A program made the position numbers. This document shows positions 6,001 to 12,000 of a stretch of 15,573 nt of DNA, piece after piece. The stretch's first letter is position 1, and every line of letters begins with the position of its first letter. Location: positions 1 through 15,573 of the forward strand of contig JBOFUV010000156.1 in the NCBI GenBank assembly GCA_051652765.1, written 5' to 3'. Origin of the DNA: Microcoleaceae cyanobacterium (GTDB taxonomy: Bacteria > Cyanobacteriota > Cyanobacteriia > Cyanobacteriales > Microcoleaceae).

Positions 6001-9000
6001 CGATTGCCGAGATTCATACCGATCAGATCGAACAGTTGGCGCAGCTTTACTCCCAGTTTCAACAGGGAAAAATTCGCTTCCTACTGGCATTTCGTCATCT
6101 CTGTGTGGATGATCCTTATCCCATCACCCAGCTCATCTGGAAACAGGTTCCTCAAATTGCTCACGAGCAGGGCATTCCCTTGAAAGACCTCGTTCATGCC
6201 CACTTCATGTATGATCGCGGCATTCCCGTTTGGGCCGGGGACTATGTTGCCTGGTTATTTCCCAAACTAGGGGGAACTTCAATTATTCGGGGAAAACTGG
6301 ATCGCCAGGGATTGCGGTCAGCCCGAGACCTGTTAGCGAATGGTCGCTTTCCCCTAGCCGCCGCCCCTGAAGGATCAACCAATGGCCATAACCAGCGGGT
6401 GAGTCCCTTAGAGCCTGGAATTGCTCAGTTGGGATTTTGGTGTGCTGAAGATTTGCAAAAGGCGGGACGGACAGAAGAAGTTTTAATTGTGCCTCTGGGG
6501 CTACAGTATTCCTATATTCAAGAAAATTGGGACGCGATCGCCCAACTGTTATCCCAAATGGAAGCGGACTGTGGTTTACCGCCCCATCTATCTACAACTC
6601 CTGCAACCTTTGAGGCACTCTATCCTCGGTTAGTTAATTTAGGTACTTATCTCTTGGGCCTAATGGAAAATTTTTACCGTCAGTTCTATCATCAGAATAT
6701 TACAGGGGATGAAACGGCTGATTTATTCATGCGGTTGCAGGAATTGCTGAATGTTGCGTTAAAAGTTGCTGAGGACTTTTTCGCAGTTCAAGCCAAGGGC
6801 AGCTTAACTGATCGGTGTCGTCGCCTAGAACAAGCAGGCTGGGATTGTATCTATCGAGAGGATATCAAAGATGTAGATGCCCTTCCCGCTGTTGAAAGGG
6901 GACTGGCGAATCGGATTGCAGAGGAAGCCAGTCTGCGAATGTGGCATATGAGACTGGTGGAGAGTTTTGTTGCCGTCAGTGGTCGCTATGTTCAGGAAAA
7001 TCCGACCTTTGATCGATTTGCCGAAACCAGTTTGATTCTGTGGAAAACCTTGGGTTGGTTAAAGGGTACTGAAACGGTTCGCCGCCCTAATTTAGGCAGA
7101 CAACGGGTAAAAATGACCGTGGCTGAGCCTTTGTCGATCTCCCAACGTTGGCCAGATTACAAGAATAATCGCCGTCAAGCCGTTGCTGATTTCACTCAAC
7201 AGTTGCAAGAGACGTTGGAAGTTATGGTTTCCAACTAGACAGTATGTACTTGTAACCCCCCAAGGAATAGAGTATTGTAAGCTCAAAATCCTGATTTGAG
7301 GGGCACGTTCCTTGGTTCCAATTCGCGATGAAAATCCAGTCACGATTACCCCCTGGGTGACACGGGGATTGATTCTAGCCAACATCTTAGTCTTTATTTT
7401 TGAGCTAAGTTTGGGCTCAGATCAACTTGAATCTTTTCTCTACAACTGGGCATTTGTTCCCTGTCAGCTTGTTGGCGATTGTACAACTCAGCTTCCAGCA
7501 TCTCCTTTTCCAGAGTGGGTTACTTTGATCACGTCTCAGTTCTTGCATGGCGGCTTCGGGCACATTGCTGGGAATATGATTTACCTGGCGATTTTTGGCA
7601 ACAATGTAGAAGACTGCCTGGGACACTTCAAATTTTTTGTCTTTTATATTGCCTGCGGTGTTTTGGCGGCTCTAACCCAAGGATTCTTTGCCCCCGACGC
7701 TGCCATTCCAACTTTAGGGGCGAGCGGGGCGATCGCTGGAGTTTTAGGTGCTTACATCATTCGCTTTCCCCGAGCTAGGATTACGATGTTACCCTTGCCT
7801 TTTCCGATTCCAATTCGGATTCCTGCCTTCTTTTTTCTGGGGTTCTGGTTCGTCATGCAATTTGCCAGTGGGATTAGTAGCTTTAGTGTTCCAACAACAA
7901 CAGGTTCAGAAGGAGGAGTTGCCTACTGGGCCCATGCAGGCGGGTTTGTTTTCGGCGTTATTCTAGGGCCGCTGCTTGGTTTATTTTCTAATCGTTCCGC
8001 CAAGTAAGGCTTCCGGCGTTGCATAAATGTTGCAGTGCCAGCTCTGCCAACTTATCAAGCCGACCCGCTGCAACATCTTCCTCAAACTGCCGATCCCATA
8101 TCTCAGCATCGAATTCCGCAAACCAGACTCGGAAAGCAGCAAGCTCATTGGCAGACAGCTTACTGATAGCACTTTCAATTTCTTGCAGGCTACTCATAAA
8201 AATTGTAGAAACGCAACAGTCTAAATGTGCATTCCCAATGGTACCGCTAAGACTTAAGTTTGTCCTCCCCTTGCTGCTTGCTTTTTCCTGCAATGGCAAG
8301 ACTAATGGCAATAGATCCCGTGACTCCAGCCGCTATAAAAGAACCTGAAATTGAACTTTGTAAAGATTCTAATTTTGGCTTATCTATGAAGTCGTCCCAG
8401 CGTAATAAGCTTTGACTTAACTCTCTTGTAATAGGATCTCTACTTTCCAGTTCTTTTTCAAATTTATTCTTCTCTGCGATCGCAAAACCTCCAAAAATTA
8501 GACACAAGATTGAGATAGCAAAGAACACTCCCTCAGCAACAGTCATCATTTACCTTATTGATAGTCCCATTCTTTAGCTCCTTCAACTTCAGACATAGCA
8601 AACATGGTGCAGAGTCCATCAAGACGTGTTGCTCACTCAGCCAGCTAATACCGCCATTCACCCGCCGCCAGAAACCTCTCGGACTGAACCAACCAACTAG
8701 ATGCGGTCGGTGTGCAACGAGATTGTTGTGCTGCATCCTACAGTATATGACTTATAACAATCTCAGATCCTTCAAACAACGGCGTGTGACCTCCATTCGA
8801 GCAGAAGCATCTTTCTCGTTAAGAATCTCGATATTGGTGGCGAAAAAGTAAACATCTTTTCCTTTCTCTAAGTACCCAACTAACCATCCAATTTGGGGTT
8901 TTACGCCATCGTCAAATCCAACCCAGCCTGTTTTCCCTCGTATGGTATAGTCTGGAGTTTTCTCTAGAACCATGATGTCTTTTACAATCGAGAGAGATCG

Positions 9001-12000
9001 CGCTTGAAAGGGTAAATCATTCTTGTAAAAACGGCGGAGAAACTGAATTTGCTGTTCAGGCGTGATTCGCAACTCTCCTCGTAACCAGAATTTGTCAATA
9101 TCTGCTTGACTCCCAATTTTTTGGTTGCCATATCCAACTTGCGTCACCCATTTTTGCATCCGGTTGTGCCCTACTCGACGAGCTAAAACCTGATAAAACC
9201 AATAGGCAGAGAGCTTGATTGCTTCTCTCATGTTCAGATCTCGATTCCATGCAGGCAGCTTTCTTTGAATGCCGTCCCACGTTAGAACCGCAATTTCATC
9301 TGAAATGACTCCCGTTTCCAGTGCAATGAGAGAATTCAGAATTTTGAAGGTAGAAGCAGGTAAAAAAGCAGTTGTGTTTCGAGATGGATTATGTTGAAAA
9401 ACGCGATCGCTGTTCGAGTCGTAAATTAGAATGGAACCCTCAATCCCTAGTTCTCGAAAGTGCGGCGCAAAATCGATGTTCTGTGCAACCTCTACACGAG
9501 TCGCGGATTCAATCGGCGAATTTGGCATTGTTGCGACTGATTGCACGGTCTGAACCAGGGCAGTGGCACTGCAACACAGCGCAACGAAAAAGATAATGAC
9601 AAAGCGAAACCTTTGATTCATCGGCTTCTACCAACTAGCAATAGGATGAGCAGCCTTACTAAAGTTTTGATGCCGTCCGCTGCACCAGGGTTGTTATGCT
9701 GCCAGATCAACCGGTTAATGTGTGGATCATTAGTAGGCGGATGCCAACCACCGCGAATCCAGAGACGACGGGCACGCTGAATAGAGCCATCATCATGCCA
9801 ATCGTCATTCATATCTAAGCGTTGAATCGTGGCACGTCCGATCGGAGCGATACCTATAATTCTTTGTCCATCGGCAGACCAGATAAAATGCTCTGACCAT
9901 TGATTTTGTCTGGGGTTGAAAAGCGGAAAATTCTCCTGGGTATCAGGATCGATGCCATCTGTAAAGTTGTAGCGGTGACCATTGCAGCGATGGCAGGCAA
10001 GGGCAAGGTTATCTTCGGCATCTGTACCACCTAGGGACTGAGGTATCAGGTGGTCAAAGGTGAAAAGAGATGCACTGGCTTCTTCCGAGGAATGACAATA
10101 CTCGCACAAGAAATTAGCGCGTTGACGAATGCATTGACGGCTGGCAATGCTGATGGTCATGACTCGGCAATAATGCGGGCATTCATCAAAGTAAAGATGC
10201 GGTCAAGTTCAGTAATACCAGCCAACTCAGCGGTTTCTTCTGAAGTGAGAAGGTTGACTTTTTGGCGCTCAATCAGAATTTCAAGGCGCAGTTGGAGTTG
10301 ATCGTTAAACTTAAAAAGATTAAGACCGCGCATCTTTTGGATTTTAATACCTTCTTCAATCCACGATGAAGGTTGTACCATTGTTTGAGTAATCATGGCG
10401 ATCTCTCCTATTCTCTAAGCGCGATTATATTTAAGGAAGCAATCTTGCGAATACTGAACCGTTTCTCTGTGAAATAGCATAGGCTGATAAAAGATAAGAA
10501 GCTGACGAGCCACTCTAAAGACACTGAGTATAAAAGCCCGACTGCTGTAATCAGGTAACCCATCATGATCAGGCAAGTATTATCAGCCTGAAGGATTTCT
10601 GCTCTTAGGGCAACGTATTCAGTTCTTCTGTCTTCTAGCTTTATTGCTTTGTCAGGTTCCATATAGCTTACCCGCTAATCCAGTTTTCTGAAGTAAAAAT
10701 AACCCTAGCAACTTTTCCACAACATTCAAGTGGTGGTAATTAGCTAACCTTAACTTGATTTTACAAAAAATTGCCTGACATAGCTTGAAGACAAAGAAGC
10801 TCTTGACGAACCAAGACACTCGGCTGAAGTATAACGTTCCTGTTTAGCGGCGGTAGATAACCTTGAACTCTCGCCGATAACTTCTGTTCCATCCGCTCCA
10901 ATCGGGTTGTTAGGCTGTTTCTCACGGTGATACAGTTTGCTTCTCTATCGCTTCAAAAATAACAGACCAGTCGCCGCGATGCAATTCGTGTCCTGTTCCA
11001 GGCAATGATAGTAATATAGACTCCTGGATTTTCGCTTTCAATACCAAGCTATGGGCATAGGGTAAAACACGATCCTCTGTGCCATGAATAATCAGAGTTG
11101 GAACGGCGATTTCGTGGAGGTGGTTGAACCATTGTTCTCCACCTTGAAGCGAGGCATGATTAAAGGTCGTCATGAAATTGGGCGTTCGATCAAAGTCAGC
11201 CCCAGCTAATTCGCGGATCGCTGATTCATCAAACAGATGGGCTGAACCAGACATCAATCGCCATGCACCAATCTGATAGTCAATCACTGCCTCACGGTTT
11301 GCCCAATCCAGTTCACTAGCTTTCGCATGATACTCAAGGACAGATGAATCGATCCCTGGTATTGTTGGATCGCCTTCAGCCAAAGGTTCTGAGGCAATTA
11401 ACGTTAGACTTTTAACTCGCTGAGGATACTTGAGCGCCATGAGTTGAGCTAAGAATCCTCCCAGCGACATCCCTACTAAATGAGCGCTCTGAAGACCATA
11501 GCTATCAAGAACACAAAAAGCATCATCCGCTAGATCTTCAACGGAATAGTGAGTGTGACCTAGCTCGTAACTGGTTGAGCGCCCCGTGTCTCGGTGATCA
11601 TAGCGAATCACATAGCGTCCTAGAGCAGCCAACTGACAGCAGAAATCTTCCGCCCACCACACGGCTGAAGACATCGCTCCCATAATCAATAAAATTGGTT
11701 GATCGCTTGGATTACCGAAAGATTCGGAAAAAAGACGAACCTCATTATGGTTAATCCATTTACTTTCCATATCTTTTCGCATCTCGGCTTTCTTACATTC
11801 TATCAACCTCGATTCCTGCATTTCACCATCATCAAAGATCAAATCATTTGGTCTTCTACAATAGCCATGCTTCGCACCGGTGCAGCGCGGTTGTTATGCG
11901 GCGATCGCTAGGTCATTGAAATTACTGGGTAATTATAACTTTCCTTAACGACTAAACCATCTTTCCAATAACCGATCGAAAGTTGATTGCTTTTATTATC

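Follow-up and report, generated by a model that had tools for sequence, protein, structure and literature searches.

A class D beta-lactamase gene in a decaying cyanobacterial cassette array, probably a damaged member of an old cassette family

Class D beta-lactamases and integron cassettes

Clinical class D beta-lactamases include the blaOXA gene families OXA-10, OXA-5 and OXA-48, and those of OXA-10 and OXA-5 are found in cassette format. The donor genes of cassettes are rarely identifiable, and the route from gene to cassette has been described as unknown (PMC4889954); the accessible text of PMC8618304 holds nothing on cassette genesis. Resistance genes are rare in the cassettes of CALINs (31 of 1933; PMC4889954). 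Translational coupling has been proposed as the means of expression of fused cassettes (PMC8876359). Class D homologues have been noted in cyanobacteria in PMC9045261 and PMC13095955, whose accessible parts do not mention cassettes in this connection; the Nostoc enzyme NOD-1 has a substrate range given as unknown in a review (PMC12389319). Our literature search found no published report of the class D cassette family considered here.

The window is the whole stretch of DNA that was analysed, a contig of 15,573 nucleotides (JBOFUV010000156.1) from the assembly GCA_051652765.1 of a Microcoleaceae cyanobacterium, referred to below as the host. An earlier survey of the genome had proposed that a native class D gene was captured here as a cassette from the lineage's own gene pool.

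The beta-lactamase-family gene and its product

8752 to 9621, minus strand: class D serine beta-lactamase-family ORF of 289 aa, with a hydrophobic N-terminus and the motifs STFK, S-A-Y, YGN, FWL and KTG

The assignment of this ORF to class D, made in the survey, is confirmed by the NCBIfam equivalog NF012161 (282 bits, cut-off 250, E 2.9e-84); the cut-off is reached for none of the 25 listed OXA subfamilies (best 244 bits versus 580). STFK and KTG are present as claimed, together with YGN and FWL; the survey did not mention that S-x-V is replaced by S-A-Y, in which the serine is kept and the third residue is tyrosine. The same triplet occurs in 36 of the 120 best homologues. In class D enzymes generally the third residue is V in 56% and I in 40%, with Y, M and A together below 0.7%; tyrosine is rare, yet it is listed among known class D enzymes (PMC12389319). 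The predicted structure has a class D fold with PDB 6NHS as the best fold match (59% sequence identity), and dN/dS relative to the nearest genome copy, in genome G118, is 0.16 overall and 0.07 in the mature part. Class D motifs by themselves do not guarantee activity (PMC9045261). The N-terminus would act as an export signal, and the product is best seen as a probable exported acyl-enzyme of the serine type, with beta-lactams or related acyl compounds as substrates, in which the tyrosine at position 120 could possibly alter turnover. Judged by its sequence, 8752 to 9621 is a real penicillinase-type gene in integron cassette form.

The attC behind the gene and the surrounding array

8643 to 8731, minus strand: attC of the beta-lactamase cassette, with an intact R'' identical to that of G118, ATT as R', a poor fold and a body subtype unlike that of G118
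10829 to 10915, minus strand: closest attC upstream that has both arms and GTT
12418 to 12504, minus strand: attC with both arms and GTT
13183 to 13268, minus strand: attC with a damaged right arm
14337 to 14425, minus strand: attC with both arms and GTT
14458 to 14522, minus strand: attC with only the left arm recognisable

The five upstream sites were placed by arm scores and a covariance model; the model was built from 51 attC sites on other contigs of the host genome, an initial strict heuristic having missed most sites. Across the site family, covariation follows a hairpin (93% paired; 0 of 500 shuffles). The ORF is followed closely on the same strand by an attC with R'', L'', L' and R', the arrangement of an integron cassette; this site matches the model at 40.1 bits (E 5e-8), and the distance from stop codon to R'' is 20 nt where the survey had given 25. 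The survey was right that R' is degenerate (ATT for GTT): the site lacks both the conserved GTT and a recombinogenic bottom-strand fold, with a fold probability of 6e-9 (z -0.15) against a median of 0.06 over 62 genome sites. Since its own attC has decayed, the host copy is probably fixed in place, as the survey had suspected.

The array, counted in the survey as six sites, which is roughly correct, comprises five model matches at E<1e-6 and two weaker ones. Eight left arms score 15.6 to 31.4 (null 99th percentile 10.2), both arms and GTT are found in three sites only, and the array is decaying. It extends to the contig end and, with at least two attC and no integrase nearby, has the composition of a CALIN; an intact intI adjoining it, as in a complete integron, was not found. 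The genome holds 83 scattered model matches for attC. No match over the TIGR02249 cut-off exists in the host assembly, where integrase remains consist of three N-terminal fragments, all on other contigs; with an array cut off by the contig end and an assembly of 158 contigs, an intact integrase may have been left out of the assembly. Among the other genomes, G159, G443 and G186 have an intact integrase.

The junction with the preceding cassette

9622 to 9666 (approximate boundary), minus strand: final ~45 nt of the cassette's native leader on the 5' side, with 76% identity to G118
9667 to 9699 (approximate boundary), minus strand: left-half attC (R'', L'') belonging to the HNH cassette in front, now adjoining what is left of the leader
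9618 to 10160, minus strand: HNH nuclease ORF of 180 aa that reads through the half attC and overlaps the beta-lactamase start by ATGA
10157 to 10396, minus strand: 79-aa ORF that overlaps the HNH start by ATGA; the same pair occurs in genome G125
10424 to 10451, minus strand: sigma-70-like promoter match (10 of 12) preceding the 79-aa ORF
10408 to 10662, minus strand: 84-aa ORF with no family in profile searches and no attC of its own found with the model
10922 to 11842, minus strand: EstX-like macrolide esterase cassette gene, start probably ~11770, preceded by a left-half attC at 11899

The attC before the beta-lactamase gene is preserved only in its left half (arm scores 31.4 left, -8.1 right), as the survey had reported. 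Leader identity to G118 is 76% over the last 45 nt versus 47% beyond; the upstream ~105 nt of the leader, with the cassette 5' end and the first box of a promoter-like motif, are missing. The HNH protein has 180 aa versus 146 to 152 aa in all 13 homologues, near none of which (0/13) was an attC found, and the 79-aa ORF may encode its antitoxin partner. Sigma-70-like promoter matches in the region number two, against 4.2 expected by chance. The EstX-like protein is 63% identical to clinical EstX.

Two other readings of the junction were rejected. The start codon does not derive from an upstream attC L' box, since the N-terminus and the preceding 45 nt are common to homologues; nor does a complete upstream attC end in the ORF, given the right-arm score and a fold that at best equals shuffles. 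Each of the two same-genus genomes has the rhomboid neighbour, flanked there by different genes and lacking the array; with flanking synteny lost, the insertion point cannot be fixed.

Homologues across cyanobacteria

The survey called the family an ordinary chromosomal gene in related cyanobacteria, which overstates its regularity: across the class, 100 of 401 genomes have a match at E<=1e-30, and gene neighbours differ widely beyond Microcoleus. The closest genome copies (90%, 83%, 82% and 80%) are all in other families, and several of them are cassettes that have their 5' and 3' ends in common. That of G118, from outside the host order and sharing only its class, is 90% identical in both amino acids and nucleotides and is a complete cassette, with a full attC 20 nt past the stop (60.2 bits, GTT, fold probability 0.67). 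In G366 the gene has an attC on both flanks within a six-hit array, and in G544 a full attC lies at -147. Among 16 other loci, 7 have, 112 to 154 nt upstream, a cassette 5' end complementary to the copy's own R''; in G118, G186 and G366 it is at -153/-154. G544 and others also have such an end, and the host copy does not. Extended complementarity of R' and R'' has been described as typical of cassettes (PMC2727003).

An attC or left arm is found at the gene in 7 of 19 loci of at least 72% identity and 4 of 21 of 66 to 72%, two of these counted loci (L053, L118) resting on weak model matches (E 0.12). Below 66% there are none (0/29, 0/43 and 0/21 with falling identity); 14 truncated loci were left out of the arm scan, of which L118, L119, L215 and L216 were restored for the later count. 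The main Microcoleus-type loci likewise have none (0/55), although the model does detect sites elsewhere in G010 (18) and G004 (11); three Microcoleus-type loci outside the attC-bearing clade have an attC 552 nt upstream. The survey's observation that nine orthologous loci lack attC agrees with these close-family loci and fails across the class.

In a 58-row tree a single clade of 27 rows (support 99/95), spanning nine families, takes in all 11 rows with an attC label, and none of the 31 rows outside it is labelled; the clade is nested among attC-free cyanobacterial homologues, and 16 of its 27 rows lack attC. The rows were hand-picked from 184, the root is a single long-branch outgroup and one label (L206) was assigned by eye. 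Clade support varies with sampling, from 96 SH-aLRT in a quick 110-row tree to 69/91 in a 46-row tree of slightly different membership. The host copy and G118 are sisters (100/98).

Origin of the host copy

The survey's proposal amounts to a recent formation of the cassette within the host lineage, out of the class D gene on its own chromosome. The host family does often have the gene without attC, and the host attC body is closest to that of G443 (77%), followed by two other sites in the host genome (75%, 74%), and not to that of G118. The same-genus copy (G010), however, has 66% amino acid and 70% nucleotide identity, lies at a different locus without attC, and is rejected as sister by the AU test (p 0.035), as is a grouping with the full set of 15 rows from the host family (p 3e-71). 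The other same-genus genome lacks a match to the gene, and the closest copies, found in other families, are cassettes with common ends. The AU tests and the 58-row tree largely refute such a recent formation, which we regard as very improbable. What stands of the survey's captured native gene is the cassette, a family at home in cyanobacteria and a clade nested among attC-free homologues; capture in this lineage does not stand. The host copy is probably a damaged member of an old cyanobacterial cassette family that arrived ready-made.

Several independent cassette formations inside the clade, with different attC subtypes joined separately, would account for the at least three subtypes found behind the gene, which are discordant with the protein tree. 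The attC label needs six changes on the 58-row tree, so several origins within the clade are possible. Against this, the 5' end (-153/-154 in G118, G186 and G366) and the bases before R'' are common across subtypes, and the sister copies of the host and G118 have the same R'' with different attC bodies (49% identity, versus 79% in the flank from stop to R''); we consider independent formations rather improbable.

The opposite direction also seems unlikely, if somewhat less so: here the family would have entered cyanobacteria, or spread among them, in cassette form, and every copy that looks chromosomal, even in the outgroups, would be a settled cassette that has lost its attC. Presence is patchy, neighbours vary, loss of attC was evidently frequent (16 of the 27 rows in the clade), cassettes insert at genome sites outside integrons (bioRxiv 10.1101/2022.09.11.507474), and of 24 leaders that bear the motif or belong to the clade, 4 resemble an attC interior in part (z up to 7.4). 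A model from one genome would miss fully decayed or foreign sites, and the outgroups without attC may thus be cassettes that settled earlier. On the other side, an attC or left arm is found at the gene in none of 148 loci outside the group of at least 66% identity, the model has no match in 74 mostly distant loci, and most leaders are unlike the attC profile (mean z ~1).

A nested clade and a partly common leader make one old capture, followed by spread and repeated attC loss, the best reading and a fairly probable one. A class D gene already resident in cyanobacteria would have become an integron cassette once, long ago, in a unit that kept ~150 nt of upstream DNA including a conserved promoter-like motif. 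Of 185 loci, 29 have this motif, both within the clade and beyond it (as in the attC-free outgroup copies of G177 and G303), against a null rate of 1.4%; the pattern was chosen after the alignment had been inspected. A genome scan without control gave 32 loose matches, and the motif was not assigned to a known cyanobacterial promoter class from the publications listed. Integron integrases would have moved the cassette among distant cyanobacteria, into arrays and lone genome sites. The chromosomal look of many descendants would come from loss of attC, and exchange of the attC body may have happened more than once. The host copy would have entered, ready-made, an array without a working integrase found in the assembly; a deletion would then have removed the right half of the preceding attC, the cassette 5' end and part of the promoter motif, fusing the gene behind the antitoxin-HNH pair, with which it is possibly co-transcribed and translationally coupled. 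The attC of the host cassette has itself decayed, and the gene is probably fixed in place.

In the fullest version, a cyanobacterial gene would have been captured once, at the DNA level, with its promoter and ~85 nt beyond; the cassette would then have reached nine or more families, its attC body would have been swapped at R'' without regard to the gene, copies would have settled repeatedly in chromosomes, and the S-A-Y subfamily would have altered chemistry. We offer it tentatively; as a whole it is more likely to fail in some part than to hold. A captured promoter with ~85 nt beyond it would point to capture at the DNA level, as copying from mRNA would not give these, and would weigh against an mRNA step in the formation of this cassette. 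One phylum holds homologues of both kinds, cassette and non-cassette, whose leaders can be aligned, so that the boundaries of capture are directly comparable. If the fullest version is true, the family is a traceable natural record of a whole cassette life for a resistance-class gene.

Comparison with known systems

The closest solved structure is PDB 6NHS (NOD-1/YbxI-like, Nostoc), and within the NF012161 family the host protein differs by S-A-Y instead of S-x-V/I/L. It shares its protein class with clinical blaOXA and, in the case of OXA-10 and OXA-5, the cassette format; it differs in its ~40% identity, in lying under all listed subfamily cut-offs and in its cyanobacterial attC family. The survey's description of a gene class typical of clinical integrons is apt for the class, without a close link: the best plasmid matches are of the OXA-48 family at 40%, and the best 5000 plasmid records are all below 60%. 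With this distance, a putative activity and a host copy that is probably immobile, direct clinical relevance would be low.

The array resembles CALINs and SALINs (PMC4889954; bioRxiv 10.1101/2022.09.11.507474) as a same-strand attC cluster with no nearby integrase. Unlike a typical CALIN, it holds two genes of resistance-cassette families, and the contig end hides its upstream part; cyanobacterial arrays thus hold genes of two clinical-cassette families, class D and EstX-like. The junction is likest to the fused cassettes blaOXA-10/aadA1 and blaGES-1/aacA4 (PMC8876359), in which the upstream attC is likewise partly lost and two genes are joined; in the host the partner is an HNH gene, the 5' end of the downstream cassette is also deleted, and the remaining attC has decayed.

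The class D gene and its product

The window is an entire contig of a 5.0-Mb cyanobacterial assembly. The survey's finding of a class D beta-lactamase (bla) gene with a same-strand attC in an array is confirmed here, with the two features placed as follows:

8752-9621, minus: class D beta-lactamase-family ORF, 289 aa, above the NCBIfam class D cut-off (282 versus 250 bits)
8643-8731, minus: attC of the bla cassette, 20 nt past the bla stop (covariance model 40 bits, E 5e-8)

None of the named OXA subfamily cut-offs among the NCBIfam matches listed is reached. The closest solved relative, which is also the top fold match, is PDB 6NHS from Nostoc (59% identity); clinical enzymes are distant, with 40% identity to the plasmid-borne OXA-48 family. 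The SxxK, YGN, FWL, and KTG motifs are all intact, and motif 3 is S-A-Y, as in 36 of the best 120 homologues. Residue 120 caps the carboxylated lysine and governs water access; across class D this position is V in 56% and I in 40%, with Y, M, and A together below 0.7% (PMC12389319), and deacylation by an S-A-Y protein may differ. Class D motifs do not guarantee activity (PMC9045261), and low activity has been inferred for most cyanobacterial class D homologues from their placement near YbxI (PMC13095955). On balance, we lean towards a real, probably modest, beta-lactam turnover by this protein. The coding sequence is under purifying selection relative to the nearest genome copy, G118 (dN/dS 0.16; mature part 0.07), which is no proof of use today.

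The attC array

As an independent check of the window attC, a profile seeded on other contigs was run over the host genome; it found 71 distinct sites on 30 contigs and none in the shuffled genome. The covariance model was built from 51 aligned sites of the 67 host sites outside the window, and covariation in this family supports an attC-type hairpin, with 93% of cells paired (0 of 500 shuffles). The attC model has 83 matches in the host genome overall, in small clusters on many contigs. Model attC sites carry G on the bottom strand at the invariant unpaired L'' base. Across the attC alignment and in the window attC sites this base is G on the top strand, giving C on the bottom strand.

Eight minus-strand left arms lie between 14522 and 8731, and only three window sites have both arms and the conserved R' triplet GTT. 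No match anywhere in the host genome exceeds the integron-integrase cut-off; the integrase remnants are three N-terminal fragments, all on other contigs. Because complete sites are few and no integron-integrase match passes the cut-off, the array is read as a decaying attC cluster without integrase (CALIN), with the reservation that it runs to the contig end. The truncated intI fragments (C74, C138, C34) have a conserved upstream region in common.

Other features of the array are:

7988-8196, minus: small ORF at the array's far end, without partner, running into the rhomboid gene end; no match in family searches; presumably antitoxin-like by resemblance
10922-11842, minus: macrolide esterase gene (427 versus NF052610 cut-off 420)
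12655-13107, minus: TMEM175-family gene (Pfam), with an apparent frameshift near its end and a plausible C-terminus in another frame toward 12540
14337-14522, minus: two attC-like sites separated by 97 nt that hold no gene; comparable close pairs are present on C21, C22, C34, and C82
14578-15333, minus: UPF0175 and DUF3368 pair as a cassette, which we take to be probably a toxin-antitoxin module

The esterase is 63% identical to clinical EstX of enterobacterial plasmids and 85% to a Nostoc plasmid gene, and is thus much nearer a clinical cassette gene than bla is. Behind the esterase gene stands an intact attC; in front, as with bla, there is only a left-half attC.

Homologues and origin

In a class-wide search, 100 of 401 genomes match bla at E<=1e-30. 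The top genome match is G118, at 90% identity and from outside the host's order, and further copies at 79-83% occur in other families; the named top matches belong to Thermosynechococcaceae, Chlorogloeopsis, Myxacorys, and Hapalosiphon. In the same-genus genome G010, a copy of 66% identity occupies a different locus, without attC, and bla has no match in the genus's third genome. Grouping the window protein with that of G010 is rejected (AU p 0.035), as is grouping it with all 15 own-family rows (AU p 3e-71). The survey had read the cassette as apparently formed from the host lineage's own gene pool, having compared close relatives alone; the interpretation stands in part, and origin from the lineage's own copy is not supported.

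A full attC follows the G118 copy 20 nt past its stop, the G366 copy has an attC on either side, and a whole or partial attC lies at one end of the gene in G186, G443, L040, L053, G544, G547, and G631. Counted over 188 distinct loci, the gene has an adjoining attC or left arm at 7 of 19 loci with at least 72% identity (the window being one), 4 of 21 at 66-72%, and none of the remaining 148. The claim that orthologues lack attC therefore fits the main Microcoleus-type loci (0 of 55) but fails for the class as a whole. Both G010 and a Microcoleus-type genome have model matches at other places, so the attC-free loci do not reflect simple model blindness. At three Microcoleus-type loci, left out of this count, an attC stands exactly 552 nt upstream of the class D gene, and an opposite-strand ORF separates the two (L065, L101, L120).

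A tree was built from 58 rows picked by hand out of 184 distinct proteins. One 27-row clade (support 99/95), covering nine coded families, holds every one of the 11 attC-labelled rows together with 16 rows without attC; the label is absent from the other 31 rows. The window and G118 are sisters (100/98). Support for the clade is 96 in a quick 110-row tree and 69/91 in a 46-row tree with slightly different members. The label requires six changes on the 58-row tree, a number that a single gain followed by many losses would fit but that does not prove such a history.

The cassette 5' end is shared, in position and sequence, by G118, G186, and G366, which argues for a common origin. At 7 of 16 other loci examined, and also in G544, sequence complementary to the R'' flank of the cassette itself is found 112-154 nt upstream of the start codon; most cassettes are described as having extended R'/R'' complementarity (PMC2727003). 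When leaders were compared with the attC profile as candidate fossil sites, 4 of 24 resembled the attC interior in part (z up to 7.4) and the majority showed no match (mean z about 1). Downstream of this 5' end, about 68 nt before the start codon, lies a two-box motif whose pattern was defined only after the alignment had been viewed and which is present at 29 of the 185 loci that have upstream DNA, against a null rate of 1.4%. It also occurs in attC-free copies outside the clade, down to 54% identity; its spacing and conservation suggest a promoter that predates the cassette.

Deletion, fusion, and proposed attC exchange

The last 45 nt before the window bla start are 76% identical to the G118 leader; in the next 55 nt, where the window has the left half of the attC belonging to the preceding cassette, identity falls to 47%. 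A deletion has thus taken the right half of that attC, the bla cassette 5' end, and the first putative promoter box. The upstream HNH gene encodes 180 aa and its homologues end at 146-152 aa (13 of 13); its ORF runs through the half attC, and its end overlaps the bla start in an ATGA; a 79-aa ORF overlaps the HNH start likewise. This arrangement suggests that bla is expressed as the third gene of the unit, a prediction in which the overlap could be chance; a promoter match upstream of the unit is within chance. A related antitoxin-like/HNH pair lies about 1 kb after the class D gene in another genome (L205, G125), in the order opposite to the window.

The R' of the bla attC is ATT, and its estimated probability of the recombinogenic fold is 6e-9; the same estimate is 0.67 for the G118 site and has a median of 0.06 across 62 genome sites. 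The window copy is probably fixed in place. The window and G118 share 90% of gene nucleotides and the flank up to R'', but identity between their attC bodies is 49%, which ranks at the 5th percentile for unrelated host sites. The window body is 77% like that of G443 and 75% like another host site, and a third type occurs in G366. For these differing bodies the simplest reading is that the body was exchanged at R'' or immediately behind it, with separate captures as the rival explanation. Recombination of the top strand at R'' has been documented in mutant sites (PMC2727003), and the outcome of an exchange could equally follow from a deletion between two R'' boxes.

Comparison with known cassettes

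Published work already includes an attC model for cyanobacteria and descriptions of cyanobacterial integrons, of CALINs, and of lone cassettes at genome sites (PMC4889954; bioRxiv 10.1101/2022.09.11.507474; PMC8352920). Literature searches, whose coverage mostly excludes subscription titles, turned up no account of this cassette family. The HNH-bla junction is similar to fused cassettes described in PMC8876359, and the window copy belongs to known kinds: a class D family, a cassette in a CALIN, and a fused cassette. The value lies not in this damaged copy but in the family, whose cassette forms can be aligned with donor-like ones.
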